Origin: Candidatus Bipolaricaulota bacterium
GTDB taxonomy: Bacteria > Patescibacteriota > Patescibacteriia > UBA11705 > DATKZF01
NCBI GenBank assembly: GCA_035528115.1
Contig: DATKZF010000002.1
Location: 69,751-133,750, forward strand
Direction: 5' to 3'
Length of the DNA: 64,000 nucleotides
This document shows positions 8,628 through 60,066 of the stretch, one piece after another. Positions within the stretch are counted from its first letter, which is position 1. Each line of letters starts with the position of its first letter. The notes under the pieces were generated by a model, which was not told the origin of the DNA, made no database searches, and was given only the letters and a program-made list of their open reading frames with translations. The translations under genes were made by a program, and so were the position numbers.

Positions 8628-8663
8628 TGATACGTGTTACGTGATGCATGATACGTGGATAAC

Positions 8664-9046
8664 GGGGATGATCGGCTTCGACGGGAGTCCTGAAATCAAA
8701 AGCGCGAAATGAGCTGTCAGCCGCTCATTAAACTGCTGGCAAATCCAATAAGTGCAACAAATGTACTGGCGAAAGTCAAAAGCTTATTTCAAGCTCCGGC
8801 TTTTGCTCCCGTTCTTGCCTAAAAGTGAGAACCGTCCGCTTGCCGATACTCGATGAGCAAACCGGACGTCAATATCGAGTTAGGCCGTCGCCATGCCAAA
8901 AGCGCCGACTGAAATAAAACGGCTCGGCCCGCTCGGAGTTTCGTTTATCTTTAATCCGGCGGTCTTAAATGATAAGATAAACTATTTTCGTAGATGCTTT
9001 TTATTTCAACTTCCAGACGCGGGTTCGATTCCCGCCATCTCCACCA
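8664..9046 (+). ncRNA. ssrA: tmRNA (SsrA)
   Basis: The 5' end GGGGATGATCGGCTTCGACGGG matches the canonical tmRNA 5' acceptor/D-arm consensus (GGGG..G.TTCGACGGG). The 3' end ACGCGGGTTCGATTCCCGCCATCTCCACCA is a tRNA-like T-arm plus acceptor with encoded CCA. The 5' GGGGATG pairs with 3' CATCTCC. It sits directly after smpB. The tag-peptide reading frame was not confidently identified. Confidence 0.85.
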
Positions 9047-9067
9047 TTCGACTCGCTCCGCTCGCTC

Positions 9068-9667
9068 ATGGTGTTCCACCACCTGCAAATCAAATTAATT
9101 ACATTATTTTCTAAAAAAATGAGAAGGTACTATAAATTCGGCAGAAAGCCGCAAAAGCAAAGAGTCAAATACCCGATCAACGAGGCCATCAAGGCTCTCG
9201 AGGTGAATGTCATTGACGAAACGGGCAAACCGCTCGGCATCATGCCGACCGCAAAGGCCATTTCCGATGCCGCGGAACGGGGATTTGATCTGATCGCGGT
9301 GTCGCCCAAAGCCGTTCCGCCGGTGGTCAAATTCGCGGATTACGGCAAACTGCAATACCAACAAGAAAAATTGTTAAAAAAACAAAAGACTCTACAAAAA
9401 AAAGCTGACCTCAAGGGCATACGGCTATCGGCCAAAATCAGCGACCATGACGCGGAATTGAAAAGAAATCAGGCCAACAAATTTCTGGAAAAAGGCCACA
9501 AAGTGAAAATAGAAGTGATTGTTCGAGGCAGAGAACACAATCATCTGCCAATGATCAAAGAAATGATTTATAAATTTATCAATAATTTATCCGTTGAACA
9601 CATAATCGAACAAGATTTGGCGAAACAGGGCAGCAAATTATCAGCCGTTGTGGCTCCAAAATCTTAA
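9068..9667 (+). CDS. infC: Translation initiation factor IF-3. The probable true start is the ATG at 9119 or a non-AUG start nearby
   Basis: The translation aligns with IF-3 from KFGRKPQKQRVKYPINEAIKALEVNVIDETGKPLGIMPTAKAISDAAERGFDLIAVSPKAVPPVVKFADYGK onwards. It is followed by rpmI and rplT, the conserved infC-rpmI-rplT operon. Confidence 0.85.
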   Translation: MVFHHLQIKLITLFSKKMRRYYKFGRKPQKQRVKYPINEAIKALEVNVIDETGKPLGIMPTAKAISDAAERGFDLIAVSPKAVPPVVKFADYGKLQYQQEKLLKKQKTLQKKADLKGIRLSAKISDHDAELKRNQANKFLEKGHKVKIEVIVRGREHNHLPMIKEMIYKFINNLSVEHIIEQDLAKQGSKLSAVVAPKS

Positions 9668-9673
9668 AATTAT

Positions 9674-9874
9674 ATGGCAAAAATGAAAACAATTAAAGCG
9701 GTCAGTAAAAGAATCAAAGTGACTAAAAATGACAAGTTGATCATCCGCAAAGGAGGACAAGATCATTTTAATTCCAGAGAAAGCGGCAAGACCGGCAGAA
9801 ACAAGAAACGAGACATCCAGATGTCCGGCGTCAACAAAAAAAATGTCAAGAATTTTATTCCGTACAATAAATAA
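9674..9874 (+). CDS. rpmI: 50S ribosomal protein L35
   Basis: 66 aa; MAKMKTIKAVSKRIKVT...GKTGRNKKR is L35-like. Its position between infC and rplT supports the call. Confidence 0.85.
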   Translation: MAKMKTIKAVSKRIKVTKNDKLIIRKGGQDHFNSRESGKTGRNKKRDIQMSGVNKKNVKNFIPYNK

Positions 9875-9904
9875 ACTTAATCACTAATCATCATTTAAGA
9901 TCAT

Positions 9905-10249
9905 ATGCCTAGAGTAAAACGCGGGAAATCGCATTTAAAGAAAAGAAAAAGTCTGCTTTCCAAGACCAAGGGTTTTAGACATGGGAAAAAGAAATTAATC
10001 AAGCAAGCAAAGACTGTCGTACTCAAGGCCGGCAAATCAGCGTTCAAGGACAGACGAGCAAAAAAAAGAACGGCCAGAGCGCTCTGGCAAATCAAATTAA
10101 ACGCGGCCGCCAGAGAACACGGGCTCAGCTACAGCCAATTCATCAAAAAATTAAAGGACAAAAAAGTTGAGCTCGACAGAAAAGTCTTGGCCGACCTGGC
10201 TGAGAATCATCCGAAAATATTCGAAAAGATCATCAAAGAAATTTCATAA
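9905..10249 (+). CDS. rplT: 50S ribosomal protein L20
   Basis: 114 aa. MPRVKRGKSHLKKRKSLLSKTKGFRHGKKKLIKQAKTVVLKAGKSAFKDRRAKKR..ALWQIKLNAAAREHGLSYSQFI is the canonical L20 sequence. Confidence 0.92.
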   Translation: MPRVKRGKSHLKKRKSLLSKTKGFRHGKKKLIKQAKTVVLKAGKSAFKDRRAKKRTARALWQIKLNAAAREHGLSYSQFIKKLKDKKVELDRKVLADLAENHPKIFEKIIKEIS

Positions 10250-10254
10250 AACCA

Positions 10255-10287
10255 TAAAAAAATCAGCTGCTAAGCTGATTTTTTTAT
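10255..10287. terminator. Bidirectional rho-independent terminator between rplT (+) and the convergent minus-strand gene
   Basis: Hairpin AAAAAATCAGCTGCTAAGCTGATTTTTTT: stem CAGCT/AGCTG with flanking A-run and T-run. Confidence 0.6.
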
Positions 10288-11175
10288 TATCGTTTGATAT
10301 TCTTCGTATAATTTCTTGAATTCCTCTGAAATCTCCAACAAATTTTTTATCGCTTCCCTTTCTTCGGCCGAAGGCTTCGAAAGATCAATGTAAAAATCTT
10401 TGGCAATCTTCTTTTCCAAAATCTTCTTGCGCTTTTCCGGCCGCGCCGCTTTGTCAATGAGCGGAGCAGTACGCTCATCTCCCGACGGCCGATGCCTGTT
10501 TTTTATTTGGCATGACGCGGGCAAAAGTTTAAAATAACCCGGCAGCAATTTTTTTACAAAAAAAGGATTGGACGGCCGCTTGTCTTTGGTCAAAGATTGC
10601 GCCAAGGCGAAATATTTTTCCAAATAAGGGAAATGTCCGAGTTGGACGACCAAACGGCTCAAAACATGTTTTTTGATTCCTCTTATGCATTCCGCCAAAT
10701 TATTTATTCTCTCTTTTTCTGTTTCAGCTCCAATGGCGTCCATCATCTCATTTAATGCCGCTTCTTCCTCGGGCGTCATATTTTTCAAAAAATCTTGAGC
10801 GTAAACATCCATTTCTTTTATTTTGCCCAAAGCTTTTTCTTTTTCACCCCTTTCCTTCTCCATTCTTAAACATTTCAAGCGAGCGGCTGATTGTGAGAAT
10901 AAACGCGACTCCCCTTTTTCCATCTCTACGGTCTCTTCTTTTTCACCGGCTTTGCCGGTCCTGATTTTTTCCAAAATCTCATTGACCAAACTCTCATCGT
11001 CATTAAGTTGTTTTTTGTTTTTGTTCCGCATAAATATTGATTGGGAAAACCGATGCTTCCTTAAAACATTATAGCCGATTTTGGCAAAAGCATAAAGCCG
11101 AATGTGTTTTTTTTCACTAAAACGGACTTGACCGATTAAAGAAGTTTGGCTATAATGATAACGTCTTTGACGCAA
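10270..11175 (-). CDS. Hypothetical K/E-rich protein (start uncertain)
   Basis: 301-aa ORF, charged and helical, with no recognisable motif. Convergent with rplT. Confidence 0.35.
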   Translation of the reverse strand: MRQRRYHYSQTSLIGQVRFSEKKHIRLYAFAKIGYNVLRKHRFSQSIFMRNKNKKQLNDDESLVNEILEKIRTGKAGEKEETVEMEKGESRLFSQSAARLKCLRMEKERGEKEKALGKIKEMDVYAQDFLKNMTPEEEAALNEMMDAIGAETEKERINNLAECIRGIKKHVLSRLVVQLGHFPYLEKYFALAQSLTKDKRPSNPFFVKKLLPGYFKLLPASCQIKNRHRPSGDERTAPLIDKAARPEKRKKILEKKIAKDFYIDLSKPSAEEREAIKNLLEISEEFKKLYEEYQTIIKKSA

Positions 11176-11188
11176 AATTCAGGCTGTT

Positions 11189-11265
11189 GGATCGGTGGTG
11201 TAGCTGGTTAACACGCCGCCCTGTCACGGCGGAGATCGCGGGTTCGAGTCCCGTCCGATCCGCCA
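11189..11265 (+). tRNA. tRNA-Asp (anticodon GTC), CCA encoded
   Basis: Cloverleaf read by hand. The acceptor is GGATCGG/CCGATCC, with D-stem GTGT/ACAC. The anticodon stem is CCGCC/GGCGG with loop CTGTCAC (U33, GTC, A37). The T-arm is GCGGG-TTCGAGT-CCCGT, the discriminator is G, and CCA follows. It is flanked by the complementary ATTCAGGCTG / CAGCCTGAAT leader-trailer pairing. Confidence 0.88.
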
Positions 11266-11293
11266 GCCTGAATCTTGCGTTTTAAGCAAATGA

Positions 11294-11323
11294 AAAACCA
11301 TCGCCCAAGCGATGATTTTTTTA
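11294..11323. terminator. Rho-independent terminator after tRNA-Asp, followed by a second perfect palindrome at about 11331-11366
   Basis: AAAAACCATCGCCCAAGCGATGATTTTTTT is one hairpin. GCAAATTTGGGTTCAATCGATTGAACCCAAATTTGC is a 36-bp perfect palindrome. Confidence 0.55.
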
Positions 11324-11394
11324 TGTCCGCAAATTTGGGTTCAATCGATTGAACCCAAATTTGCGGCAACGAAACTTCATGGAAGCATCGCCGC

Positions 11395-11598
11395 CTACTG
11401 CCTTCTTCCTTTCCTTTGACAGTAATAAAAGGTCAAGCCGCCGGCCATCGCGGAAACCGCCCAAATGCCGAGACAAATGGCGGCAAACCGCTGACTAGGC
11501 AACGCTGACGCGTCAGCGATTCCCTTGATCAAGATGCCCCAGATCAAGAGAAACATGACCGTCAAGCCGACAAGCCACCCACGAACCGCGCCTTTCAT
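11395..11598 (-). CDS. Small hydrophobic protein (about 67 aa, two TM helices), moderately GC-rich
   Basis: The internal ATG at 11598 is preceded by GGAGG (reverse-complement context AACCCTGGAGGAGTCATG). The longer six-frame ORF to 11808 lacks such a signal. Confidence 0.35.
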   Translation of the reverse strand: MKGAVRGWLVGLTVMFLLIWGILIKGIADASALPSQRFAAICLGIWAVSAMAGGLTFYYCQRKGRRQ

Positions 11599-11760
11599 GA
11601 CTCCTCCAGGGTTTTGTCCACGATTCTGTATTATATCATGTTTTATCAAAAAAGTCAATACCACAAACAAAAAAATCCCCTTCGTGAGGATTTTGCATAA
11701 TTTGACAATCACCCTGAAAACAAATAAGCTTTTCGAGAACCGCCAAACAGGAGGACGACC

Positions 11761-12033
11761 GTGAAACCAAACTCCAACAATGGAAATGGCTCGCCGCGCG
11801 ATCCACAAGCCTGTTTTTCACAGCGCATTTTCGGAAAACGCAATGCTTGGGCCATTGTTGACCCAAGGGCACGCGATGTGTATTTGATAAACGTGGGAAA
11901 ACGATCCGCCGCGGAAGCTCGCTGGTCTTCGACTCGCCAGCTACTCGAGAAAAAAGCGCCGGATTTCCCCGAATGGGCTAAAAGCAAAACCATCCGGTTG
12001 TTCAAGGACTATGGCTTTCACAAACCGCGATGA
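11761..12033 (+). CDS. Hypothetical 90-aa protein, GTG start with AGGAGG RBS
   Basis: CAGGAGGACGACC precedes the GTG at 11761. Divergent from the small membrane gene. No family recognised. Confidence 0.35.
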   Translation: MKPNSNNGNGSPRDPQACFSQRIFGKRNAWAIVDPRARDVYLINVGKRSAAEARWSSTRQLLEKKAPDFPEWAKSKTIRLFKDYGFHKPR

Positions 12034-12057
12034 TCGGAAATTAATCAATTTCCGATT

Positions 12058-12924
12058 TTAAAATTCTTTTTTGATCCGCTCTATTTGTTTATCAATTTTT
12101 TTCTTAATTTCCGTTCTTTGCCCTTTTCGAAGGGACATAAAAATAATGAAAAACACTGAGATCAACGCGACCAAAACGCTGAAAAGCTGAGCCCAACGAA
12201 CGCCGAAAACAATCGGGCTATAGTCGACTCTCAAAAACTCCATATTGAATCTGATGATCGAATAGCCCAGAAGATATGAAAAGAAAATTACGCCATTTTT
12301 TATCGAGATATTTTTTTTAAATCTCAGCCATACCAAAAGCAACAACGCTCCGAGCAAAACGATGTTAAGCAATGACTCATACAAAAACGCGGGATGGAAA
12401 TATTTATCGGCCAAATATTCGACCGGCCGAAAGGCGGACAAAATCGGAATGCCCCAAGGCAAATCGGTTGGCTGGCCGAAAAGCTCCTGATTGAAATAAT
12501 TGCCCCAGCGTCCGATAATCTGCGCGCACACCAAGCCGATGGCTGATAAATCGAAAAGGTCTTTCCAATTAACTTTTTTCATTCTGGCAAAAAAATAAGT
12601 CGCTAAAAAAGCTCCGATCATGACGCCATGCACCGCGAGTCCTCCTTGCCATATTTTCAAAACATCAAGAGGTCTGTCTTTATAAAATTCAAAAGCGTAA
12701 AGCACGTAATAAATTCTGCCTCCGACAAGACCGGCGATGGCCCACCAGAAAACAAGATCAAACAGCCAATCTTTTTTTATTTTAAAATATTTCGCCAATG
12801 CTCTGGCCAAAAACAATCCGGCCAAGCCTCCGAGAACCATGAGCAAGCCGTACCAATGGACGTCCAGCGGTCCAATGGAAAAAGCGATCGGCTTGGGAGA
12901 AAATGTGTGCAAAAAAATATTCAT
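12058..12924 (-). CDS. lgt: Prolipoprotein diacylglyceryl transferase
   Basis: 288 aa and multi-TM. HWYGLLMVLGGLAG and GRWGNYFNQELFGQPT are signature Lgt motifs. Confidence 0.9.
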   Translation of the reverse strand: MNIFLHTFSPKPIAFSIGPLDVHWYGLLMVLGGLAGLFLARALAKYFKIKKDWLFDLVFWWAIAGLVGGRIYYVLYAFEFYKDRPLDVLKIWQGGLAVHGVMIGAFLATYFFARMKKVNWKDLFDLSAIGLVCAQIIGRWGNYFNQELFGQPTDLPWGIPILSAFRPVEYLADKYFHPAFLYESLLNIVLLGALLLLVWLRFKKNISIKNGVIFFSYLLGYSIIRFNMEFLRVDYSPIVFGVRWAQLFSVLVALISVFFIIFMSLRKGQRTEIKKKIDKQIERIKKEF

Positions 12925-13009
12925 AAAAAATGGATTAATTCAATTGATTGCATTATAGCACAACAAAATATTTTTTTTAATTTAAAAAGCCTTTGGCGTG
13001 GCCAAAGGT

Positions 13010-13231
13010 CTATGGGCGGCAGTCGCGAAGGCTCGCCTGCAGGATCGCGAACGGCGATTGCATCAGCGGCGGTGGATCCGCCTGCGAGCGCGGGCGCGCG
13101 GCGCTTGTTCGAGCCGGTTGCCAGTCCGGATCAGGGACCTCATCGTAGCGAGGCCCGCGACCGAACTCGAAATCCTCAGGGATCGTCCGGAGCCGCTTGT
13201 TCGTCAGATCCTCTCGATAGTCTCTCGGCAT
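13010..13231 (-). CDS. Hypothetical 73-aa Pro/Arg-rich protein on a roughly 330-bp GC-rich islet
   Basis: AAGGAGGG lies 5 nt upstream of the ATG at 13231. A downstream hairpin (GCCTTTGGCGTGGCCAAAGG) plus A/T run at about 12986-13010 serves as terminator. The overlapping plus-strand ORF 12998..13351 is rejected. Confidence 0.4.
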   Translation of the reverse strand: MPRDYREDLTNKRLRTIPEDFEFGRGPRYDEVPDPDWQPARTSAARPRSQADPPPLMQSPFAILQASLRDCRP

Positions 13232-13471
13232 GGATTCCCTCCTTGGGTTGCCGGGTTGCGGGAAACAATAACAATAAAATATCAAATGGGAAGAGGCCTG
13301 TCAAGAGACAAAAAGAAAACCCCGCTTAATCGCGGGGTCTTCTCTCTTTAGGCTTTTGCCGTTGCAATACGCAACATTTATTGTAATAACAAAGGAATCA
13401 CTTCCCTTGTTTATTATAATTTACTAAAAATTGTTTTTGCCGTCAAGATCTTCAATTATCAATGTGGATAA

Positions 13472-13789
13472 CTACTTCATTTTCAGCTCTTTTTGAACAT
13501 CTCGCCAGCGAGCCTTCAATTCTTTGTTGATTTCATCCAAAGTCTTGTTGGCGGTTTTCTTTTTCTTTTTGTATTCCGCGACCACGCCATCAACGATTTT
13601 CTCATACTTGTCTTTGGTCATGCTTTTCGCTTTTTCCACTTCGCCGATGATTTTACCGCTCATTTCTTTGGCCAAATTTTTAATGTCGGCTCTCGTTTGC
13701 TTGCCTGACTTGGGAGCCAGCAAAATAGCCGCGGCCGCGCCGATCACCGCGCCGATGGCGGCTCCGGCCAAAAATGTTTTCTTTTTCAT
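13472..13789 (-). CDS. YtxH-like small membrane-anchored protein (general-stress-like, DUF948-type)
   Basis: 105 aa. It has an N-terminal Gly/Ala-rich TM (FLAGAAIGAVIGAAAAILLAPKSGK) then a charged helical tail. This pattern is typical of YtxH-domain proteins. Confidence 0.5.
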   Translation of the reverse strand: MKKKTFLAGAAIGAVIGAAAAILLAPKSGKQTRADIKNLAKEMSGKIIGEVEKAKSMTKDKYEKIVDGVVAEYKKKKKTANKTLDEINKELKARWRDVQKELKMK

Positions 13790-30030: not shown

Positions 30031-30171
30031 TTTCGAAAACCGGCGCAAGCCGGTTTTTTTATATATCGACAAAGACTATAATCTCGATTTGTTTATAGCT
30101 CTGAATCTCTCAATAAGTATTTAAAAACTCTCACACAACATAGCTATGCGAGAGTTTGAACTCTTAAGAGA

Positions 30172-31464
30172 TCAAAATCTCTTACTCTTTGGTTTAATCG
30201 ACTGCACGCCAGTGTATGCATGCAGGACATCGGGAATGAGCACTGACCCGTCAGCCTGCTGGTTATTCTCAAGAATGGCAAGAACCACGCGAGTAATTGC
30301 GACCGCCGTTCCGTTGAGTGTGTGTACGAATTCATTTTTGCCAGTTGCGCTATTCCTGAACTTGATGTTCAGTCGACGCGCCTGGAAATCCGTACAGTTT
30401 GATGCGGAGGTTATTTCGCCATACCCGCCTCCCTCGCCGATGCAGGGCATCCACGCTTCGATATCATACTTCCGGTAAGCAGGGGTTCCCAGCTCCCCCA
30501 TACACATAAGCAACACGCGGTAGGGAATCTTCAGATCCTGGCAAAACTCTTCCTCTATCGAAAGTATCTCTTCATGAGCGGCTGCACTCTTCGAGGGATG
30601 CACAAATTGATAGAGCTCCACCTTGCTGAACTGATGCACGCGGTAAAGCCCCCTGCTCTCGCGTCCTCCGCTGCCAGCTTCGGTCCTGAAGCAATGGCTA
30701 ACACCCGCGACCTTGATTGGCAGATCTTCTTCCGAAATCACGGCATCCGCCATGTAACCACCAATGGTGATTTCGGAAGTCCCGATGAGACTCATTCCCC
30801 CTTCAGTCAATGAATAGATCTGACTCTCTGGTCCCCGAGGAGAGAACCCTGAAGCGGTGATAATCTCGTCTCGAACAAGTTCTGGCGTCGTCATTGGAAC
30901 GAAGTCATACTTGAGCGCAAGCTCAAGCGCGTAACGGATGAGCCCCAACTCCAAGAGCACTGCCTCGTTCTTAAAAAAGTAGAACTTGGAGCCAGCGACT
31001 TTCCCCGCAGCCTCAAAGTCCAGGATATCCAGACTCCTGCCGAGTTCGATATGATCGAGCGGCCTGAAGCCGAATTTAGTAGTCTCTCCGACGAATCTGA
31101 TAGCGACGTTGCCTTTCTCGTCCTTACCTTGCGGCACATCCGAAGCAGCAAGGTTCGGGATTTTCCTTGCCTCCCCAAGATACTCCTTCTCGACAACCGC
31201 GATTTCCTGCTTGAGGGAAGCTATGGTTTTCTTGAGATTAGCAACCTCCAACTTGAGCCTTTCTTGAGTTGCACCATCGGCACTCTTGAACTGCCCGGAG
31301 ATCTGATTAGATCGGTGCAAAGCCTCTTCGAGACTCCGCCTCTTCTGTTTTGTTTGCTCGTAGAGAGCAACAACCTGGTCGACGTCAGCCTTGGCATAAC
31401 GCTCCTGCGTATTCTGCCTCACCAAATCGATGTTTCTGAGAATGAATCTAATGTCCAACATCAT
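30172..31464 (-). CDS. serS: Seryl-tRNA synthetase (full length, with N-terminal coiled-coil arm); composition is more GC-rich than the core genome
   Basis: 430 aa. Class II motifs are present: FRTEAGSGGRESRGLYRVHQFSKVE (motif 2) and GGGYGEITSASNCTDFQARRL (motif 3). AAGGAG lies 5-8 nt upstream of the ATG. Confidence 0.9.
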   Translation of the reverse strand: MMLDIRFILRNIDLVRQNTQERYAKADVDQVVALYEQTKQKRRSLEEALHRSNQISGQFKSADGATQERLKLEVANLKKTIASLKQEIAVVEKEYLGEARKIPNLAASDVPQGKDEKGNVAIRFVGETTKFGFRPLDHIELGRSLDILDFEAAGKVAGSKFYFFKNEAVLLELGLIRYALELALKYDFVPMTTPELVRDEIITASGFSPRGPESQIYSLTEGGMSLIGTSEITIGGYMADAVISEEDLPIKVAGVSHCFRTEAGSGGRESRGLYRVHQFSKVELYQFVHPSKSAAAHEEILSIEEEFCQDLKIPYRVLLMCMGELGTPAYRKYDIEAWMPCIGEGGGYGEITSASNCTDFQARRLNIKFRNSATGKNEFVHTLNGTAVAITRVVLAILENNQQADGSVLIPDVLHAYTGVQSIKPKSKRF

Positions 31465-31591
31465 CTATCTCCTTGGTATCGTTGGTGCCCGGAACGGACA
31501 TCTGACGAAAATATATATTAATAGTAATTAACTGTTTTGTCAACAAATTTCTATTTCATAATTGTAATCATAATATAAAACAGAGCTGCGG

Positions 31592-32938
31592 TTGACGATA
31601 ATTTATAAATATTATACGTTGCATTACACCATCATAGTTAGTACATTAACAAAAATCCACCATTGGGAGATAGACCAAATGGATAAGGAAAACGTACATA
31701 TTTTCTCGGCAGGAACACCCTGTATCGATGATGCGGAATTTGAAGTAGTAGAACGTAAAGGAATCGGCCATCCAGACACGCTCTGCGACACAATCGCTGA
31801 AAAGGTATCTCAAGCGTATGCTCAGTATTCTCTGGAACGCTATGGCATCATCTTGCGGCACATGGTTGATAAAATCGCACTGTCAGGAGGGGCTGCGAAG
31901 GTCAAATTCGGCGGCGGTGAAATGAATGAGCCAATCAGGCTTTATCTAAATTGTCGCTTCACCAGGAGATACCAAGAAGAAACAATCCCGTATCTGGAGA
32001 TTGTCAAAAGCACAGTATACAACCATCTCAAAGCTGTGCTTCCATTACTGGATCTTGATCGGTGGCTCATGATTGTTGACAATACTCACTTTTCTCCAGG
32101 TCCTGGCGTTGTCTACGAAGCTGACGGATCAACGCAAAACGAACGTCAGTTTTTCTTCGAGATCCCGCAGAAAGAATTTGCCATATTTCACGACAACAGC
32201 CTTCGTGCCAACGACACATCCACGGCTGTCGCATATAGCCCTCTTAGCACTACGGAAAAGATAGTAATATTAATCGAAACAACATTAAATGGATCGGAAT
32301 TCAAAAAACGACATCCCTATGTGGGTACAGACATTAAAGTCATGGCTAGACGCATAAAAAAACGCATAGCCATTACGGTTTGCATTCCTTTTGTTGCTAT
32401 CTACACGCCAACCAAAGAATTCTATACCGAAAAACTCAGATTACTGCAAGATGTGATCAGACAACTGGTAATCTCAAGTTTCGGGCAGTTAGATGTTACT
32501 GTCTCGCTCAACACGAGGGATAATCCGAGCAAATCAGATTATTACCTCACCCTAACAGGGAGCGCAATCGAAAGCGGTGACGAAGGAGTGGTTGGGCGAG
32601 GAAACCGGTACAATGGGGTCATTCCCTTTACCAGGCACATGAGCATGGAGGCTTGCTGTGGCAAAAACCCTGTCTACCACGTAGGCAAGGTGTACACGGC
32701 AATCTGCTCCCTTATCTCCGAGGAAATCTTCAAGCTCATAGGGATTGAGGTGTACGTCTACCTCACTTCACAAATGGGTAGAAGTCTATCAGATCCATGG
32801 TTGGCCTGTGTTGAGGTCTGCGGTGGAAACGTAACTTCTGTTCAACGCCAAATGATTGAAGCAATCATCGAGAGCAACCTCGCCAGTGCCAACGAAGTTA
32901 CTAAAAAGATCGTTAACGGAGAACTCAATTTATACTGA
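31592..32938 (+). CDS. Archaeal-type S-adenosylmethionine synthetase (MAT); likely start at the ATG at 31679
   Basis: FEVVERKGIGHPDTLCDTIAEKVSQAY matches the archaeal MAT N-terminus (VERKGLGHPDSICDGIAE in Methanocaldococcus), not bacterial MetK (SEGHPDK). GDEGVVGRGNRYNGVI matches the archaeal GRGNR motif. Confidence 0.7.
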   Translation: MTIIYKYYTLHYTIIVSTLTKIHHWEIDQMDKENVHIFSAGTPCIDDAEFEVVERKGIGHPDTLCDTIAEKVSQAYAQYSLERYGIILRHMVDKIALSGGAAKVKFGGGEMNEPIRLYLNCRFTRRYQEETIPYLEIVKSTVYNHLKAVLPLLDLDRWLMIVDNTHFSPGPGVVYEADGSTQNERQFFFEIPQKEFAIFHDNSLRANDTSTAVAYSPLSTTEKIVILIETTLNGSEFKKRHPYVGTDIKVMARRIKKRIAITVCIPFVAIYTPTKEFYTEKLRLLQDVIRQLVISSFGQLDVTVSLNTRDNPSKSDYYLTLTGSAIESGDEGVVGRGNRYNGVIPFTRHMSMEACCGKNPVYHVGKVYTAICSLISEEIFKLIGIEVYVYLTSQMGRSLSDPWLACVEVCGGNVTSVQRQMIEAIIESNLASANEVTKKIVNGELNLY

Positions 32939-32980
32939 AAATTGCAACTTTCGCGCCTGTGTCACAGATACGGGCTCTTT

Positions 32981-33676
32981 TTATAGATTAAATAATCCTC
33001 CTGAACTAATATCTGTCTTTACCCCAGTGGCAGAATATATCGTACAGAATCGCTCTCCAATACATGATGCGACATTATTTTCTATAATCATACCTGCTCC
33101 TTCAGACAAACATACAATAGGCAAATTGTTATTCATTGCCCATGATTTAAAACGATTGTTCTGATTATTCTTAAAATGACATGCGACAGAAAAATCATGT
33201 AAAAGGTTTAATCCTGCATTATCTTGTAATCCTATCTTATTTTTGTCATCTTGAGTATCAATTCTTTTCCCCAAAATAATTGCTCCTGCACTTCCTCCAT
33301 ATACTTGCCCTCCTGATTTATAGTATTTAATCAATGCGTCAGCAAAACCTGAGTTTTTGAGTTCATCCATTAAATCCCACGTATTACCTCCGCCTATATA
33401 AATGCCGTTAAAATTTATTAAATAATTAAATTTATATTTAGAAGGATCATCAATTACCTCAAACTGAATATCATCTCTCTCATGAAGTTTAATAACGCTA
33501 TTCATCCACAAGCGCACTGTGAGATAAATCTTAGAATCACGAAGAGCAATTGGCACATATAAAAAACGCCCATTTACAGGCAATGTGCTAAAAAAAAATT
33601 TGTCAAGGAGGAATGATTGTTTCTCATTGCCACCCCCCGACAAATATATTCGGTTTTTCTCCTTTATTTTTTGCAT
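32981..33676 (-). CDS. Peptidase family S51 protein (PepE / cyanophycinase-like dipeptidase)
   Basis: The N-terminus has a YLSGGGNE motif, and the central YIGGGNTWDL and GGSAGAIILG motifs match the S51 Ser-nucleophile context. The stop overlaps the start of the next gene by 13 nt. Confidence 0.55.
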   Translation of the reverse strand: MQKIKEKNRIYLSGGGNEKQSFLLDKFFFSTLPVNGRFLYVPIALRDSKIYLTVRLWMNSVIKLHERDDIQFEVIDDPSKYKFNYLINFNGIYIGGGNTWDLMDELKNSGFADALIKYYKSGGQVYGGSAGAIILGKRIDTQDDKNKIGLQDNAGLNLLHDFSVACHFKNNQNNRFKSWAMNNNLPIVCLSEGAGMIIENNVASCIGERFCTIYSATGVKTDISSGGLFNL

Positions 33677-34851
33677 GTTTGTATCGCTCTACGTAGCTCG
33701 CAAATGTTGATTTTATGAGCATACACCAAGCGATTAAAATAGTCTTCCGTCGTTTCGTCGCGAGGTTGCGGCAGATTTAGCTTCTTGCAAACCCTCAGGT
33801 TAATGAACCTTTCAATTTCCAGCCGTGCCAACTGAACGGCGGATTCTCTAGAAACGAACGGGGTAAGGAACTGACCCCAGTAATCGAAATAGTACAACAG
33901 GATACGGAATAGATTCTTGTCAAAATACTTCTCACTGAGCATTTTGGCGATACGTCTGAACTGAAGACCAGGCCCCTTGTTTGTCGCTTGTACCCCACAC
34001 AATACGATGAGTGACAACGTTCGGTACAAGTCGAACATTTCCCTTGCCCCATCTGATGTCCCAGGAATCAACAAATCGAAGTAAGAATCGGTCTTATTTA
34101 TTGCCCAGGCAATTCTCTCAAGACCAAACCCAACATCGCTAATGGGAATCGACGCTCGATTTGCTTGAGGTATCTGCATGTAAGCAGCGTCCCCAAGCTC
34201 AAGTCCTCCATAAGAGAAAAAAAGCTCCAGCGCGGAAAACTGGCCCGTTCCCCAATCATTGGCAGATGTTCTCATGACAACGATGAAATCATTCATGTGA
34301 AGGCCAAGCCTTGATAGCATCGTGCACCAGCAATCTACTATCTGCAAATGCTCGTCAAGGGTGGCTCCCATCTTCTCGGTACACACATTTACAAAAGAAG
34401 TGGAAGTCCCGTTTTGTGACTCGACATATGGCTGAAATTGCATGCGTACACAGGGCTGGGAGACGAATAGCTTACATTCCCGTGTCTGCTGACCTTTATG
34501 TATGACGTCGTCAAACATCTGCACACCAGCCACCACAAGGTCGGTTTGCCCCTCTAAATTTGCTATCTTTAGAGGAGGAGACAGTTTGAAGCCGGACGAA
34601 ACAAAGTACTCTCTCATCATTGCATTGATTTTTGCAGGGGGCAGCATTTTCTTTCGCTTTGAGAAATTAAGAAAAGCTAATACCCTCTTATCGCACTGAT
34701 GCCAACCGCAGCTTGAGGTCTCTATCTTGGCTAAACGCTTAAAGAAAAAAGTCCTCCCACAACCTTCGCAAGCACGGACTTGCCACCCTCTTTTCACCAT
34801 GAATTCGCTTACGACACCAGCAAGATCACAGGTCTTCATCTTTTCAGACAT
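33664..34851 (-). CDS. Stand-alone alanyl-tRNA-synthetase catalytic-domain paralogue with N-terminal Zn-ribbon-like CxxC/C..C segment
   Basis: SQPCVRMQ aligns with AlaRS QKC(I)RAG, and TSFVNVCTEKMGA with HHTFFEMLGN. FGLERIAWAIN aligns with the AlaRS GLERI motif. The protein is only 395 aa, with no tRNA-binding, editing or C-Ala domains. The N-terminus has CEGCG and a separated CGWHQC pair. Confidence 0.55.
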   Translation of the reverse strand: MSEKMKTCDLAGVVSEFMVKRGWQVRACEGCGRTFFFKRLAKIETSSCGWHQCDKRVLAFLNFSKRKKMLPPAKINAMMREYFVSSGFKLSPPLKIANLEGQTDLVVAGVQMFDDVIHKGQQTRECKLFVSQPCVRMQFQPYVESQNGTSTSFVNVCTEKMGATLDEHLQIVDCWCTMLSRLGLHMNDFIVVMRTSANDWGTGQFSALELFFSYGGLELGDAAYMQIPQANRASIPISDVGFGLERIAWAINKTDSYFDLLIPGTSDGAREMFDLYRTLSLIVLCGVQATNKGPGLQFRRIAKMLSEKYFDKNLFRILLYYFDYWGQFLTPFVSRESAVQLARLEIERFINLRVCKKLNLPQPRDETTEDYFNRLVYAHKINICELRRAIQTCKK

Positions 34852-35027
34852 GGATAAATCTCCAGTTATAATTTTAATGTACTACCAATATAATTTAACG
34901 ACAATTAGCGATTTTGTCAAACGCCACTTTTCCACTTTGCCTTCAGCGATTAATTTGCTAAAATTATACTGCCGATAAAACAGAAAGCCGCCCTTTCTGT
35001 TTCTCTATCTATTCACCATAAAAACAT

Positions 35028-37754: not shown

Positions 37755-38324
37755 ATGAACAAAATAATTTTCGGTTTTGTCGGCGAAATCGCCAGCGGCA
37801 AAGGCACGGCTTGCGATTATTTGATCAATAAATACGCGGCCGGTTATCATCGCTACTCCACTATTTTAAGAGACATAACGGATCGTTTGTATTTGGAACA
37901 AAGCCGCGAAAACCTGCAGGACCTGTCAACCATTTTAAGAAACCGCTTCGGACAGGATTTGTTCGCTCAGGTCATGGCCAAAGAAGTCGAGGACGATCCG
38001 GCGGAAATAATCTGCGTGGACGGCATCAGGCGGCCCGATGACATTATTCATTTGAAACAATTGCCCGGGTTTATTCTGGTCAGTATCGTTGCGGACATGA
38101 AAACGCGCCATAAAAGAATCGTGGAACGCGCGGAAAACACGGATGACCAAATCAAAACATTTGAAGAATTCAAAAAAGACCATGAGAACGAAAATGAGAA
38201 AAGCATTCGCGTTGTCGCGCAAGACGCCAAAGAAAAAATAGACAACAACGGCTCTCATGACAAACTGTTCGAGCAAATCGACAGCTTGGTGGAAAAATAT
38301 GAAGATAAAAATAAGCAGAATTGA
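37755..38324 (+). CDS. P-loop nucleoside/nucleotide kinase (dNK/CoaE-like)
   Basis: The Walker A motif is GFVGEIASGKGT. It is about 190 aa and sits inside a dNTP-metabolism operon. Start placed at the internal ATG at 37755. Confidence 0.5.
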   Translation: MNKIIFGFVGEIASGKGTACDYLINKYAAGYHRYSTILRDITDRLYLEQSRENLQDLSTILRNRFGQDLFAQVMAKEVEDDPAEIICVDGIRRPDDIIHLKQLPGFILVSIVADMKTRHKRIVERAENTDDQIKTFEEFKKDHENENEKSIRVVAQDAKEKIDNNGSHDKLFEQIDSLVEKYEDKNKQN

Positions 38325-38998: not shown

Positions 38999-39421
38999 CT
39001 AGCCGATCGCCGAAATCGGCTCGCGGTCGTCGCAGATGGCCTCGACCGCGCGGGAGATTGCCCACGCCCACAACGCGGCATAGGCAGGCAGGATAAGGTG
39101 CCGGAAACCCTGGCGATCGCGAATCGGCTGCGGCTCATCCAGATTGTGATTGACAGAAACCACCAACAGCGGGATCTCCTGCCTGATCGCCGCCTGGTGA
39201 ATCTCCAAGACGAGCGGCGTGAGCATTCGATGCTCCCGCCCCCATTCCGCGAGGATGACGAGATCGACTCCCGGAGGCAAATTGATGCCTCCATTGTCGA
39301 GCTGAGCTCGCAGCTCCCGCTCGTCAATGTAGTCGAAATCTTCCTTCAGACACTCTCGACACCATGCTTGCGCGCTTCCGGCCGCGGCCCGATTGTATCC
39401 AATCACCAACACATTCGGCAT
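38999..39421 (-). CDS. GC-rich orphan hypothetical protein with alternating beta-alpha (flavodoxin/Rossmann-like) pattern
   Basis: 140 aa. VLVIGYN...DLVILAEWG...PLLVVSV hydrophobic strands alternate with helices. A G-rich RBS lies upstream. A bidirectional terminator hairpin sits at 38941-38975 (AGAGCCAAGTCTGACCTGGCTCT). Confidence 0.4.
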   Translation of the reverse strand: MPNVLVIGYNRAAAGSAQAWCRECLKEDFDYIDERELRAQLDNGGINLPPGVDLVILAEWGREHRMLTPLVLEIHQAAIRQEIPLLVVSVNHNLDEPQPIRDRQGFRHLILPAYAALWAWAISRAVEAICDDREPISAIG

Positions 39422-42298: not shown

Positions 42299-43012
42299 CT
42301 AGTACGGGTAGCAGGCGCCATCGTTGTCGCAGTACGTGCCGGTCGGACAGTCGTTGTCCGATCCGCAGGTGGCAGGCCGAGGCTCGGGCGCGCTCTGGTA
42401 ACAGAGCCCGTCCGAGGAGCAGAAGGTTCCGACCGGACAGTCGCTGGCCGACTGGCAGCCGGTCCGCGTGAGCGGGACACAGCTACCATCCGCGGCGCAG
42501 AAGTTGCCGACCGGGCAGTCGTAGTCCGAGATGCAACCGGCCTGCATCGCATAGCAGGCACCGTCAGCACCGCAGTAGAAACCGATATGACAGTCGGCAT
42601 CCACGCGGCAGCCTCCGACCGGACCGTCTTCGACCACGACCGCGACTTGCGAGACGCTGCAATAGCCGTCCCAGTCGCAGAACATGTCGGACCGGCAGTC
42701 CCAGTCGCTGGCACAGGGGTACAACCACTCACAGTAGTTGACCCCCGGGACAGCCATCGGCTGACAGTACATGTTGAACGGACAATCATCGTCCGTCCAA
42801 CAACCACCGTCTGTCGCGACCGCCTCGTCCACGTAGCCGGGCTCGCCGATGCAGGTGTTTCCCACATCGGTGCCGGTGCAGACCGTCCCGTACGGACAGT
42901 CGTAGTCGCTGTAGCACTGATCGTCGATCGGCTCGTGGTAGCCGACCGAGCCGAAGCAGCCGTTGAAGAAAGCGCACAGGACGCACAACGCCGCAAACAT
43001 CATGCTTTTCAT
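42299..43012 (-). CDS. Secreted cysteine-rich repeat protein with about 8 tandem DxDCPxGxxC(x)2-4DG(x)C modules; GC-rich
   Basis: The start is at the internal ATG at 43012, preceded by GGGGAG. The signal peptide is MKSMMFAALCVLCAFFNGCFG. Repeats such as SDYDCPYGTVCTG, TDDDCPFNMYCQP, SDWDCRSDMFCDWDGYC, VDADCHIGFYCGADGAC, SDYDCPVGNFCAADGSC, SASDCPVGTFCSSDGLC and SDNDCPTGTYCDNDGAC are read directly. Confidence 0.6.
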   Translation of the reverse strand: MKSMMFAALCVLCAFFNGCFGSVGYHEPIDDQCYSDYDCPYGTVCTGTDVGNTCIGEPGYVDEAVATDGGCWTDDDCPFNMYCQPMAVPGVNYCEWLYPCASDWDCRSDMFCDWDGYCSVSQVAVVVEDGPVGGCRVDADCHIGFYCGADGACYAMQAGCISDYDCPVGNFCAADGSCVPLTRTGCQSASDCPVGTFCSSDGLCYQSAPEPRPATCGSDNDCPTGTYCDNDGACYPY

Positions 43013-43196
43013 GATCTCTCCCCTTTTCTTTTCCCGCCTTGGCGGGATTTTGAAGTTCTTGCAATTCCAGTAAATCATTATATTATATCATATTTAATCA
43101 AAAAAGTCAATGATTGTAGTCTTTTTTTATCTAATTTTGGATAAAAAAAGCGAAATGCAAACATTCCGCAAACAAATAGAAATGGATAATGTATTA

Positions 43197-54141: not shown

Positions 54142-55236
54142 CTAGTCGACGTCTGCCGCGGGGAATGCCCCGGACAAGAAGTTCTCGGACTCGGCCGCCT
54201 TGGCCAGGTCCTGCTCGATCAACTTCGCCCAGAGCTCGACGACCGTGAGCGGGAGCTCGAAGATGAACCGGTCGCCGCGCGCGACCATGATCTCCTCGAG
54301 CAGGCCGAGATCATCCGAATTGCCCAGCAATCCGACGGCTGTGACCGGGGTCGGGTCGCCGAAGACCGCCTTGATCTTCTCGCCGCGAATGAAGACGCCC
54401 GGAGCCACTTCGTAGCCGGGCCAGGTGTCCGTCGCCGCGGTCTGGTAGAACTGCTCGACGACCGCCCAGAAACCCTCTTCCTCGCGGAAGTACTGCTCAA
54501 CCGTCTTGAAGAAACGGCTGAGCAATCCCGGCATGAAGCGCTGGAGCAGCTGCTCCTTCGAGCAGAGCGCCTCGGACGCGGCTCCGAGCATGTGCACGTC
54601 GAGGGGGAGCAAGTGCGCGAGCTCGGGGTACTTCTCGAACACCGGCCGGAACCCGGCCGCGAGTTCGGAAGCGCTCAAGCCGAACGCCTTGTCGCCGAGC
54701 GGACCGGACTGCCGCACTTCCGTTTCCTTGAGGAAGAAGCATGGCCCGTTCAGAACCTCGAAGATGGGGTGGCCGAGCCACTCCTCCCCTGCCTTCTCGT
54801 GCAGGTAGCCGGACAGCCGAGGCAGGCCGGCCTTGATGAAGTCGGTGATCGCCGCCTCCACGCGGGCGAAGAACGCCCGCGTGCCGCCGTCGTAATGCGC
54901 TAGCAGCTGCCGGCGCCGCCACGCCTTGCGCACGTCCACTGCATGCGTTCCGCGCTCCTGCGGATCCTGCTCGCTCGAGACCTCCAGCATGCGTAGGGGA
55001 GTAGCCGCCGCCTTCTTCTCCGCCTTGGCCGCGCTGGGCGGCACGTCGATCTGGAACACCTTCGGCTCTGACTTCGGCCGAGCCTCTGGAGGAACATCGG
55101 TCTGAAAGCCGTTGCCCGCCGGTGCCGCCGCCGAGTCGAGCCGGACAGTATTCGGTCCCGGCGTGAAATGCACCGCCGGATCCACGGTCGTGCCCGGCTC
55201 CGAAAAAGAAACGCCCTTGCCCTTCTTGTCCGTCAT
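54142..55236 (-). CDS. GC-rich orphan hypothetical protein (364 aa), Ala/Pro-rich N-terminal region
   Basis: AGGAGG lies 6 nt upstream of the ATG. It is much more GC-rich than the flanks. No family recognised. Confidence 0.45.
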   Translation of the reverse strand: MTDKKGKGVSFSEPGTTVDPAVHFTPGPNTVRLDSAAAPAGNGFQTDVPPEARPKSEPKVFQIDVPPSAAKAEKKAAATPLRMLEVSSEQDPQERGTHAVDVRKAWRRRQLLAHYDGGTRAFFARVEAAITDFIKAGLPRLSGYLHEKAGEEWLGHPIFEVLNGPCFFLKETEVRQSGPLGDKAFGLSASELAAGFRPVFEKYPELAHLLPLDVHMLGAASEALCSKEQLLQRFMPGLLSRFFKTVEQYFREEEGFWAVVEQFYQTAATDTWPGYEVAPGVFIRGEKIKAVFGDPTPVTAVGLLGNSDDLGLLEEIMVARGDRFIFELPLTVVELWAKLIEQDLAKAAESENFLSGAFPAADVD

Positions 55237-56012: not shown

Positions 56013-57032
56013 TTATAATTGAAAAAAATCTTTAAGTATTGGGACAAATGAGTATTTTTTTACTCTATCAACTAATTCATGTTCTATATTTTTATTGTTA
56101 CAATCTTTTATATAATGACTAATAAGATAAATAGCTTCTTTACTAGTTGTGTAAAGAAATCTTTCTGGAAAAAAATCAGGGTAACACAAATTATTAGGTA
56201 ATACCGGGATACATCCGCATGCAACAGCCTTCATGACTGCATAACCAAAATTCTCTTGTTTTGAACAACTTAAAACAATACGTGATTGAGCAAGTGTTTG
56301 AATATGCTCAGTTGAAGATTGCTCCGCAATAAATATTATATTTTTATATCGTTGAAGCATTTTAAAATATTTATTTTTTCTCATAATATTCATGGGCTGC
56401 GGGAAAGTTACCACGAACCCAACAGCAGGCAACTTTGATACGATGCAACAAAATTGCTCAATACCTTTATCGTCATCGAGCCTATGTGGAAATATTACAT
56501 CATATTTTATTTTATGTGATAAAAGACATTTCCTAAAAGCATCCATTCCCCATGGTGAAACCTTTATCTTTTTGCAAAAATCCTGAGGACACTCTTCAGC
56601 AAGAAACCTTGATGGCACATAAATCCTATCATAAATACTAGCCCAAGCGAATTCTGTTTTTTTTAACCACGGCCAAGAATATAAATCATTCGGCAAAAAA
56701 GAACCTCCATGCAACAATGCGCCCAATCGACAAATAATTCCTTGCTGAGTATAATAATATTTCAATAGATCAATGCCGGGATTAAAAAAATCCAAAAATA
56801 AAATTCGGTCAACTTTCCCTAATGCAATAAGTTTTTCAATGAGTTTAAATTGTCCAGTAATATAATCTGAGTCATCCAATATTCCTCCTTTAATGCAATT
56901 ATCAAGTGGTTTAATATATCCAACCATCGTTGCCTTTATACCAATATGTTTAATGGATAATTTCAATCCACGCACAATATCTTCAAATGAAGTTCCTAAA
57001 TAGTAAGGTGGGATAGCGATAATATTCTTCAT
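56013..57032 (-). CDS. Glycosyltransferase, GT-B fold (GT4-like)
   Basis: The C-terminal ENFGYAVMKAVACGCIPV matches the E-x7-E / ExFG nucleotide-sugar binding motif of GT4 enzymes. 339 aa. Confidence 0.65.
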   Translation of the reverse strand: MKNIIAIPPYYLGTSFEDIVRGLKLSIKHIGIKATMVGYIKPLDNCIKGGILDDSDYITGQFKLIEKLIALGKVDRILFLDFFNPGIDLLKYYYTQQGIICRLGALLHGGSFLPNDLYSWPWLKKTEFAWASIYDRIYVPSRFLAEECPQDFCKKIKVSPWGMDAFRKCLLSHKIKYDVIFPHRLDDDKGIEQFCCIVSKLPAVGFVVTFPQPMNIMRKNKYFKMLQRYKNIIFIAEQSSTEHIQTLAQSRIVLSCSKQENFGYAVMKAVACGCIPVLPNNLCYPDFFPERFLYTTSKEAIYLISHYIKDCNNKNIEHELVDRVKKYSFVPILKDFFQL

Positions 57033-57040
57033 AATATATT

Positions 57041-60063: not shown

Positions 60064-60066
60064 GAA

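Follow-up and report, generated by a model that had tools for sequence, protein, structure and literature searches.

Within a 64,000-nucleotide window of contig DATKZF010000002.1 (positions 69,751 to 133,750), which is labelled as Candidatus Bipolaricaulota bacterium, a segment at 30-35 kb carries a cassette of four genes. They encode a seryl-tRNA synthetase (SerRS), a divergent paralogue of the archaeal-type methionine adenosyltransferase (MAT), a hydrolase of the S51 family, and a 395-residue protein derived from alanyl-tRNA synthetase (AlaRS), which we call AlaL. Similar cassettes recur in other genomes. The module appears to be undescribed; its core is the trio of AlaL, the S51 hydrolase, and the MAT-like protein, and SerRS is a recurrent fourth member. 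The explanation that we tentatively prefer is that it is a conserved module of the Candidate Phyla Radiation (CPR), co-inherited vertically with its hosts, in which AlaL would aminoacylate a small-molecule or glycoconjugate acceptor instead of tRNA(Ala), with the S51 hydrolase and the MAT-like protein assisting. The literature on the module, on AlaRS in the CPR, and on paralogues of the PF01941 family was searched, and nothing specific was found.

We collected loci that contain AlaL (numbered with the prefix L) from species representatives of GTDB (24), metagenome contigs (80), and exact-protein look-ups, and scanned them with hidden Markov models that were based on the window and on distant members; 97 loci were non-redundant. 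Counts within 5 kb of AlaL refer to the loci with at least 3 kb of sequence on both sides (23 of the main clade and 7 of other subfamilies). The S51 gene was present within this distance in 21/23 and 6/7 of these loci, respectively, and the same numbers were obtained for the MAT-like gene. The S51 gene lies immediately 3' of AlaL on the same strand in 44 of 50 main-clade loci and in 17 of 28 other loci. SerRS is encoded within 5 kb of AlaL in 15 of the 23 main-clade loci, and it also adjoins diverged AlaL genes in five loci (L033, L084, L105, L116, and L118); that of L033 is merely 30% identical to the cassette SerRS. The order of the genes is variable, with serS on either side and on either strand, and with the MAT-like gene either convergent or co-directional, depending on the locus. 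The genes around the cassette differ almost everywhere between loci. A tRNA scan of 21 related loci detected no tRNA that was consistently associated with the cassette. The initial annotation of the window, made from the sequence alone, had regarded the four genes as a non-standard but functionally linked combination. This is borne out by its recurrence in nearly every locus with the AlaRS-like gene, and the proposed interpretation as an unusual system built on a paralogue of an aminoacyl-tRNA synthetase (aaRS) is supported and sharpened.

The sole database evidence on the identity of AlaL is a weak but specific match to archaeal AlaRS (TIGR03683, E = 1.6e-7; PDB entry 2ztg, residues 11-270, E = 6e-5), and a protein identical to it has been deposited as hypothetical protein VMX18_01840. 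It misses the cut-offs of the alaS models, scoring 30 bits vs. 745 for TIGR03683 and 17 bits vs. 457 for TIGR00344. The protein is composed of a zinc ribbon, a class II catalytic domain, and a helical tRNA-recognition domain. It lacks the editing domain (tRNA_SAD), the C-Ala domain, and the archaeal insertion of approximately 65 residues that links the catalytic and recognition domains. The cysteines of the N-terminal zinc ribbon (C28, C31, C48, and C53) are invariant across the main clade. An AlphaFold model of AlaL is confident (pLDDT 94), and a Foldseek search with it retrieved archaeal AlaRS as the best match (TMq 0.70), followed by catalytic fragments of bacterial and human AlaRS and then by GlyQ. 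A profile of the AlaL family aligned with the AlaRS of Archaeoglobus fulgidus over the catalytic domain (E = 5e-32). The alignment also covers the tRNA-recognition helix of the A. fulgidus enzyme, DHTRCILFMLGDGLVPSN(359)AGAGYLARL, including its PSN with N359; the recognition-helix positions correspond to D274, R277, N291, R299, and R300 of AlaL.

Among 51 AlaL proteins that share 24-62% identity, the residues of motif 2 (Q132, P133, and R136) and motif 3 (G243, E245, and R246) are invariant or nearly so, as are F153, W200, and D239, the Asp of SDxGFGLER. The class II residues of motifs 2 and 3 (R136 and R246) and the Asp that binds the alpha-amino group (D239) are thus kept. The stretch that forms the alanine pocket is altered, from IEIWNIVFM in Escherichia coli to LELGDAAYM in AlaL. 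The changes are W211 to Gly, N212 to Asp (D221 in AlaL), I213 to Ala, and V214 to Ala, where the E. coli numbers are mapped from the motif. AlaL looks able to bind ATP, an alpha-amino acid, and an acceptor stem, yet it does not look like an ordinary AlaRS.

A direct indication comes from locus L083, which encodes a canonical "small" AlaRS of 618 residues (160-2016; PF01411, 448 bits, plus tRNA_SAD) located 9 kb from its own MAT-AlaL-S51 operon (7689-13489). This genome looks like a member of the CPR because ribosomal protein S4, RpoA, and a release factor are encoded on the same locus. In L083, AlaL is not the AlaRS of the cell, because the canonical enzyme is encoded on the same contig; the initial view of the protein as a stand-alone paralogue rather than a tRNA synthetase is therefore upheld. 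Small AlaRS forms have been reported for the CPR, and small AlaRS and viral mini-AlaRS are both known. Motif scans of approximately 1.17 Mb of related loci, which at 21 kb or less each are uninformative on absence, revealed a canonical AlaRS only in L083 and no bacterial MetK.

A word-indexed search with AlaL gave 200 clusters at E <= 1e-3. The best 120 of these 200 are 50-100% identical to it, none carries a Pfam domain, and all of them are called "hypothetical protein" in their sources; the named sources among these 120 are mostly Parcubacteria, Paceibacteria, Berkelbacteria, and Patescibacteria. An exhaustive profile search yielded about 500 representatives at 50% clustering, 240 of them at E <= 1e-30, and nearly all members have 350-420 residues. 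Neither Pfam nor NCBIfam has a model for the family. A pattern scan found it in only about 24 of 185,579 species representatives. The simplest reading is that the module is old and patchily distributed. Relatives of AlaL also occur on contigs that do not look CPR-like in composition and neighbours (L032, 62% GC; L029, 57% GC; L034, with an SLH-domain protein), and such hosts would be expected to carry a normal alaS. No AlaL relative was found on viral contigs, PHROGs contained no match for AlaL or the MAT-like protein, and the defence models of PADLOC matched none of the four proteins. Two long forms of AlaL, P0331 (L032, 10001-11770) and P0327 (L029, 3656-5680), have C-terminal extensions, and no S51 gene was seen in either locus. 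The extensions have no reliable Pfam match; the best, at E = 0.011, was a weak resemblance of one of them to a methyltransferase of the RfbT/FkbM type. That of P0327 had no Pfam match at all and, judged by eye from the sequence, may be a GT-A-like glycosyltransferase.

The S51 protein matches PF03575 with 77 bits, and it is far below the equivalog cut-offs of PepE (48 vs. 156 bits) and cyanophycinase (31 vs. 127 bits). Its substrate need not be an Asp-dipeptide. As in PepE and cyanophycinase, there is a Ser-His-Glu triad. Among 77 partner sequences, conservation reaches at least 95% for S129, which lies in the motif GGSAGA, and for H167, and 85-95% for E192. The hydrolase appears CATALYTICALLY competent. 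No signal peptide was seen on reading the sequence (no predictor was used), and the enzyme appears to be cytoplasmic. Unlike PepE and cyanophycinase, it is tied to AlaL. The two genes of the window overlap by 13 nt, S51 is translationally coupled to AlaL on the same predicted transcript, and in P0313 and P0391 the two proteins are fused into one polypeptide.

The MAT-like protein matches PF01941 with 359 bits and is homologous end to end with the archaeal MATs of Pyrococcus furiosus, Thermococcus kodakarensis, Methanocaldococcus jannaschii, and Sulfolobus solfataricus (201-259 bits, with 259 bits for the P. furiosus enzyme). It is under every NCBIfam cut-off for MAT (329 vs. 553). The core motifs GHPD, DIKVM, GDxG.VGRGNR, and SMEA..GKNP..HVGK are kept. 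Using the residues of P. furiosus MAT that contact S-adenosylmethionine (SAM)(PMC8727953), we compared 51 AlaL-linked homologues. The contacts on the adenosine side (H30, D198, Y268, and D280) are retained by 50-51 of them. Unlike in the archaeal MATs, the contacts on the methionine side of the MAT-like protein are altered (H59 to Arg, N61 to Met, D141 to Tyr, and L142 to Glu). The segments ILHHN and GSxDLV are present in all four real archaeal MATs. The cassette type of the paralogue (38/51) has ILRHM, Tyr and Glu at the other two sites, and a conserved insertion of about 20 residues, while a second type keeps HHN. The GSxDLV segment of the gating loop is replaced by an insertion in 51/51 homologues, the second type included. 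The comparison shows a remodelled methionine site and hence that the protein is no orthodox MAT, although a new substrate need not follow from this. The remodelling, together with the near-obligate linkage to AlaL even on contigs that do not look CPR-like, argues for a dedicated role.

The SerRS of the cassette is a full-length enzyme of the bacterial type, with an N-terminal arm and a class II core (TIGR00414, 458 bits vs. a cut-off of 302). A search with it showed about 85 clusters with at least 58% identity that form a clade; identity then falls to approximately 50%, where the few named matches are from Rectinema and Rickettsiales. Two members of the clade that were looked up (64-65% identity) both sit in the cassette.

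The cassette diverges together with its surroundings. Over 97 locus pairs, the identity of the cassette correlates with that of flanking genes that are reciprocal best matches (Pearson 0.60, p = 1e-10), and the cassette is about 22 points better conserved than the flanks (68% vs. 45%). The four genes co-diverge with r of 0.82-0.93. In L036, the cassette lies approximately 6 kb from secE-nusG-rplK and a dihydrofolate reductase gene, and the identities between this locus and the window are 55% for the cassette, 61% for nusG, and 54% for rplK. Because the divergence of the cassette tracks that of the flanks, vertical inheritance is indicated rather than recent transfer. The simplest reading is that the module is an old unit inherited with the host under strong constraint. 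Horizontal spread had been considered from a comparison of initiation factor 3 and a release factor (36% identity) with the cassette (65-82%), and it was withdrawn because cassette and flank identities correlate over the 97 pairs.

The composition of the segment was also compared with that of the window. The initial annotation had described a GC content above that of both flanks and a different codon choice, as might be left by recent horizontal acquisition. The former does not hold, since the segment has a GC content of 0.441 vs. 0.433 and 0.438 in the flanks and is at the 55th percentile of equal-sized windows. The latter is correct for serS, S51, and AlaL, whose codon-usage distances from the core genes of the window have z values of 2.9, 3.8, and 2.5, but not for the MAT-like gene (z = 1.3). 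The GC content of serS is mildly high (0.514, z = +1.7), those of the MAT-like gene (0.455) and AlaL (0.458) are typical of the window, and that of the S51 gene stands out as very low (0.333, z = -2.6; GC at third codon positions (GC3) 0.263, z = -3.7). In nearly every cassette locus, whatever the GC content of the host, the S51 gene is 10-13 GC points under AlaL, serS, and MAT. Its GC3 is 0.25-0.37 across the cassette loci (the window and L001-L087), and serS, MAT, and AlaL are often above the mean GC of the locus, in many relatives by 5-14 points. Since this internal pattern recurs across genomes, it is a property of the genes and not a sign of recent arrival. No integrase, tRNA, or bounding repeats were found at the segment within the window. 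With a host-like overall composition, the correlation with the flanks, and the partial synteny in L036, the idea of recent acquisition finds no support. The opposite outcome that had been envisaged, an ordinary core region, is correct in that the same genes recur and co-diverge in a host-like manner. However, this does not turn the region into an ordinary one, since what recurs is a module that is apparently undescribed.

Outside the four-gene cassette of the CPR, the contexts of the relatives point to small-molecule or glycan chemistry. AlaL is found in surroundings of an inositol, GT1, or methyltransferase type in L083, L086, L094, and L096. Among these, myo-inositol-1-phosphate synthase is encoded in the AlaL operons of L083 and L094, and a GT1 glycosyltransferase of the MshA family in those of L083, L086, and L096. 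The operon of L083 contains myo-inositol-1-phosphate synthase, the MAT-like protein, AlaL, S51, a GT1 glycosyltransferase, and a methyltransferase, a layout that resembles mycothiol synthesis. Radical SAM enzymes are encoded near AlaL in seven loci (L030, L032, L084, L086, L091, L096, and L105). AlaL is surrounded by an aminotransferase and a GFO/IDH/MocA oxidoreductase in L029 and lies within a polysaccharide cluster in L032. A carbamoyltransferase is encoded nearby in L033 and L109, and phosphatases in L033 and L091. Peptidases of the S66 family (MccF-like) occur near AlaL in L030, L033, and L034, and in the first two of these they adjoin truncated genes that resemble class II aaRSs.

The clusters of L030 (7456-18977, equal to L031) and L033 (2769-11453) combine AlaL with several such truncated genes and an S66 peptidase. 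The aaRS-like genes comprise two with tRNA-synt_2b and HGTP domains and one of 360-373 residues with tRNA-synt_2. A methyltransferase, MazG, a carbamoyltransferase, and a HAD hydrolase are also encoded there, and the cluster of L033 adjoins a serine recombinase and a DNA methylase. Both clusters look like biosynthetic or immunity loci of the aminoacyl-nucleoside type.

The logic of an aaRS, an aaRS-like ligase, and a hydrolase, to which the initial annotation had appealed, has a real precedent in the ascamycin cluster of Streptomyces sp. 80H647. Of the AlaRS architecture, AcmF has kept just the domains for aminoacylation and tRNA recognition, and this truncated AlaRS-like protein transfers alanine from Ala-tRNA to the sulfamoyl amine of an adenosine derivative. 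AcmD, the extra and resistant AlaRS of the cluster, makes the Ala-tRNA, and the hydrolase AcmE strips the alanine. AlaL is cut down to the same two domains, as judged from the Foldseek match and the aligned recognition helix, and its gene is likewise located with those of an aaRS and a hydrolase. However, AcmF has lost residues for the activation of ATP and alanine (N219Q and D232E), whereas AlaL keeps R136, R246, and D239, and only the Asn equivalent is altered (D221). AlaL stems from the archaeal-type AlaRS lineage, unlike AcmF. Its partner aaRS is SerRS, not AlaRS; the cassette has no sulfamate or halogenase genes and has a MAT paralogue instead. The hydrolase is a predicted intracellular S51 enzyme, in contrast to AcmE, which is a secreted alpha/beta hydrolase.

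Mycothiol synthesis provides another parallel. MshC, which is derived from cysteinyl-tRNA synthetase (CysRS), is an ATP-dependent ligase that joins cysteine to the amine of GlcN-inositol, an acceptor for which Ino1, MshA (a GT4 enzyme), and the deacetylase MshB are responsible. The similarity lies in an aaRS-derived ligase, in the inositol synthase of L083 and L094, in the GT1 glycosyltransferase of L083, L086, and L096, and in the S51 hydrolase present in all of these loci. The differences are that MshC is a class I enzyme whereas AlaL is a class II enzyme of AlaRS origin, that S51 is unrelated to the LmbE-type MshB, that nothing in mycothiol synthesis corresponds to the MAT paralogue, and that the cassette of the window lacks inositol and glycosyltransferase genes. 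With canonical, small, mini, and split AlaRS, AlaL shares the catalytic fold, the archaeal-type zinc ribbon, motifs 2 and 3, and the PSN helix. It differs from them by the domains and the insertion that it lacks and by its changed pocket.

Most of the roles in the ascamycin and mycothiol systems have an equivalent in the AlaL module. For the favoured role of AlaL as an aminoacylating enzyme with an acceptor other than tRNA(Ala), the chemical steps, the amino acid, the acceptor, and the use of tRNA that we infer would be as follows. The acceptor would be a small molecule or a glycoconjugate, and AlaL would acylate one of its amines or hydroxyls with a small amino acid from the class of Ser, Ala, Gly, or Cys. 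The amino acid would be activated with ATP or drawn from an aminoacyl-tRNA, for example, Ser-tRNA from the adjacent SerRS. Because AlaL keeps the ATP-binding arginines, unlike AcmF, we lean to ATP-dependent activation, while an aminoacyl-tRNA donor is still allowed. The S51 enzyme may unmask or prepare the acceptor, or it may proofread or recycle the product. The MAT-like enzyme may supply a building block of the adenosine or SAM type, or dedicated SAM. SerRS may supply Ser-tRNA, may be a target that needs protection, or both.

Several observations weigh against this assignment. The four-gene cassette of the CPR contains no glycosyltransferase, exporter, or tailoring gene; therefore, the acceptor must come from elsewhere. 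The kept tRNA-recognition helix would fit a tRNA-directed role equally well. The residue at the position of E. coli N212 (mapped from the motif) varies within the AlaL family, and inference of a substrate from the pocket is therefore weak. The MAT-like protein keeps the core motifs of MAT and could still make SAM. SerRS exceeds the equivalog cut-off, and in the comparison with L036 the cassette proteins are conserved at the level of the core translation proteins NusG and RplK; both findings fit plain housekeeping for serS and possibly for MAT.

Other explanations have to be considered beside an acceptor of the small-molecule or glycoconjugate type. It is possible, if doubtful, that the system is novel altogether, with an AlaRS-derived enzyme and a dedicated MAT building an aminoacylated metabolite of the adenosine/SAM type or of the inositol-sugar type, and with SerRS as the donor or the target. 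AlaL would then read the acceptor end of a tRNA, or its adenylate site would take an adenosine- or SAM-like ligand from the MAT paralogue. The product could be, for example, a mycothiol-like cofactor or an envelope decoration, worth keeping in CPR genomes of about 1 Mb. We consider it unlikely that the genes serve translation-linked housekeeping, with serS and MAT being the only copies of the cell and with AlaL and S51 acting on tRNA in charging, repair, or proofreading, where S51 would replace the editing domain. The full-length SerRS above its cut-off, a cassette divergence that tracks the host and matches core genes, and the renewed proximity to secE-nusG-rplK in L036 would all suit such a role. 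The ATP and alpha-amino motifs and the PSN helix kept in AlaL would suit it as well, and the AlaL-S51 fusion mimics the AlaRS order of catalytic domain, recognition domain, and hydrolase. However, the trio is also found inside inositol, glycosyltransferase, radical SAM, polysaccharide, and carbamoyltransferase clusters, some of them on contigs that do not look CPR-like; the scan of 21 loci detected no dedicated tRNA gene near them; the methionine site of MAT is remodelled and the amino-acid pocket of AlaL differs from that of AlaRS; and the small number of species representatives in the pattern scan is odd for a core translation function. Improbable, too, is a toxin that mimics an aminoacyl-adenylate, coupled with self-protection. 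The MAT-like protein and AlaL would build an inhibitor of the seryl-adenosine type, SerRS would be the resistant copy and a possible supplier, and S51 would cleave or mature the product. The close analogy with AcmD, AcmF, and AcmE supports this explanation, as do the recruitment of SerRS beside AlaL in several subfamilies, once with a SerRS only 30% identical to that of the cassette, and the distant relatives with MccF-like S66 peptidases, truncated class II aaRS-like genes, MazG, carbamoyltransferase, and HAD proteins, some of them located by recombinases. However, S51 is apparently cytoplasmic and is coupled or sometimes fused to AlaL, so that breaking the product down at that place would amount to a futile cycle. 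Exporter and tailoring genes are also missing from the cassette, the ATP-binding arginines lost in AcmF are still present in AlaL, and strong purifying selection with vertical inheritance in genomes of about 1 Mb suggests a physiological product.

The two remaining alternatives concern the origin of the segment and the identity of AlaL. That the segment is a recently acquired genomic island that happened to bring serS is very unlikely and already largely refuted. In its favour, serS, S51, and AlaL depart in codon usage from the core of the window (z of 2.5-3.8), the GC content of serS, MAT, and AlaL exceeds the locus mean in many relatives, the flanking genes vary between loci, and a recombinase fragment adjoins the cassette in L038. 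Against this stand the GC content of the segment, which equals that of the flanks, the window's lack of an integrase, a tRNA, or bounding repeats there, the correlation of cassette and flank identities with the partial synteny in L036, and the failure to find a copy on viral contigs. We give hardly any credence to AlaL being the real AlaRS of the organism in a minimal or split form. It retains the catalytic and recognition domains, the small and viral mini forms are precedents for a reduced enzyme, and a split AlaRS occurs in Nanoarchaeum. However, the canonical small AlaRS and AlaL are encoded on the same contig in L083, the alaS models give AlaL only 17-30 bits vs. cut-offs of 457-745 and its pocket residues differ, and the family is also present on contigs whose composition and neighbours do not look like those of the CPR.

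Profile matches for each protein placed all four genes where the initial annotation had put them, and the other features of the segment are given with them in Table 1. The segment lies between nusG, rplK, and rplA upstream and thyA, folA, dcd, a dCMP deaminase gene, a kinase gene, and dut downstream, in agreement with the two core blocks noted before. A GGGAG ribosome-binding site precedes the ATG start codon of the MAT-like gene at 31679. Judged by its promoter-like and terminator-like sites, the segment is probably transcribed as three units (serS, MAT-like, and AlaL-S51), and the earlier statement that this is not a standard operon proved right in that respect. No riboswitch, T-box, or other RNA was detected in the segment with Rfam, either at the gathering threshold over the whole window or at E <= 1 over 29.9-35.2 kb.

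Table 1. Positions of the cassette genes, putative regulatory sites, and compositional outliers in the 64-kb window
Feature	Position	Strand	Basis
serS	30172..31464	(-)	TIGR00414, PF02403 (Seryl_tRNA_N), PF00587 (tRNA-synt_2b)
Promoter-like site 5' of serS, TTGACA-17-TAATAT	31515..31543	(-)	sequence pattern
MAT-like, divergent archaeal-type MAT paralogue	31679..32938	(+)	PF01941
Terminator-like hairpin between the convergent MAT-like and S51 genes	32955..32975	(+)	sequence pattern
S51-family Ser-His-Glu hydrolase	32981..33676	(-)	PF03575
AlaL, 395-aa AlaRS-derived ORF	33664..34851	(-)	weak archaeal AlaRS match and fold
Promoter-like site 5' of the AlaL-S51 operon, TTGACA-17-TAAATT	34892..34920	(-)	sequence pattern
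High-GC outlier ORFs	252-3663; 38999-39421; 42299-43078; 54142-55236; 62345-63763		

The promoter-like regions of serS and AlaL (31510-31543 and 34887-34920) share a 34-nt stretch with 74% identity (repeat D1), and the leaders of MAT and AlaL (31634-31649 and 34874-34889) share a 16-mer that contains TAGTACATTAA. The sequence TTGACAAA is found 5' of AlaL in 21 of 45 cassette loci. A role of the common upstream motifs (repeats D1 and I4) as an operator was considered and rejected, since only boxes resembling the -35 element (TTGACAAA and TTGACTAA) are clearly conserved across loci. Judging from the upstream motifs, co-regulation of the cassette genes is possible.

The window is bacterial and encodes tmRNA, gyrB, nusG, rplK, and rplA. 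The closest matches of its proteins are from Patescibacteria (CPR). The named relatives of the cassette proteins are also nearly all from Patescibacteria, and NCBI labels the identical proteins as "Candidatus Bipolaricaulota bacterium". The taxonomic label of this metagenome-assembled genome may be incorrect.

Some other regions of the window were conspicuous in composition. Its strongest outliers in codon usage are scattered open reading frames (ORFs) of high GC content (0.57-0.67, with GC3 up to 0.86) on a background of approximately 0.44. Most of them have no Pfam match, and two contain motifs of a cysteine-rich or metal-binding type (Dickkopf_N/DUF7107 and MopE-like). A block of low GC content (0.31-0.36) at 56013-60852 is a real compositional island with a SAM-consuming character. 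It encodes a GT1 glycosyltransferase, an ATP-grasp protein, a fusion of GT2 with BpsA_C (branched-polyamine-synthase-like), a SAM decarboxylase, and a PTPS-like protein, and a gene for a C39-like peptidase adjoins it. A small dNK/CoaE-like kinase (37755-38324) is encoded in the deoxynucleoside triphosphate metabolism cluster of the window, at a distance of 3 kb from the cassette. In L084 (3388-3975), the gene for another dNK-like kinase comes immediately after a radical SAM-AlaL-SerRS arrangement; this may be a coincidence.

The aaRS paralogues that have been re-used in small-molecule chemistry, such as MshC, AcmF, the amino acid:carrier-protein ligases, and EpmA, are few, and each of them opened new biochemistry. 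The AlaL family comprises about 500 clusters and has three near-obligate partners, one of which is a MAT paralogue with a rebuilt substrate site. The proteins of the cassette are all small and apparently soluble. AlaL probably attaches an amino acid to something besides its usual tRNA. We regard the module as an aaRS paralogue recruited for aminoacyl transfer outside translation, and there is a real chance of something more novel. The cassette is conserved like core translation proteins in very small genomes, which suggests that it provides an important metabolite or a tRNA-linked function in the CPR.

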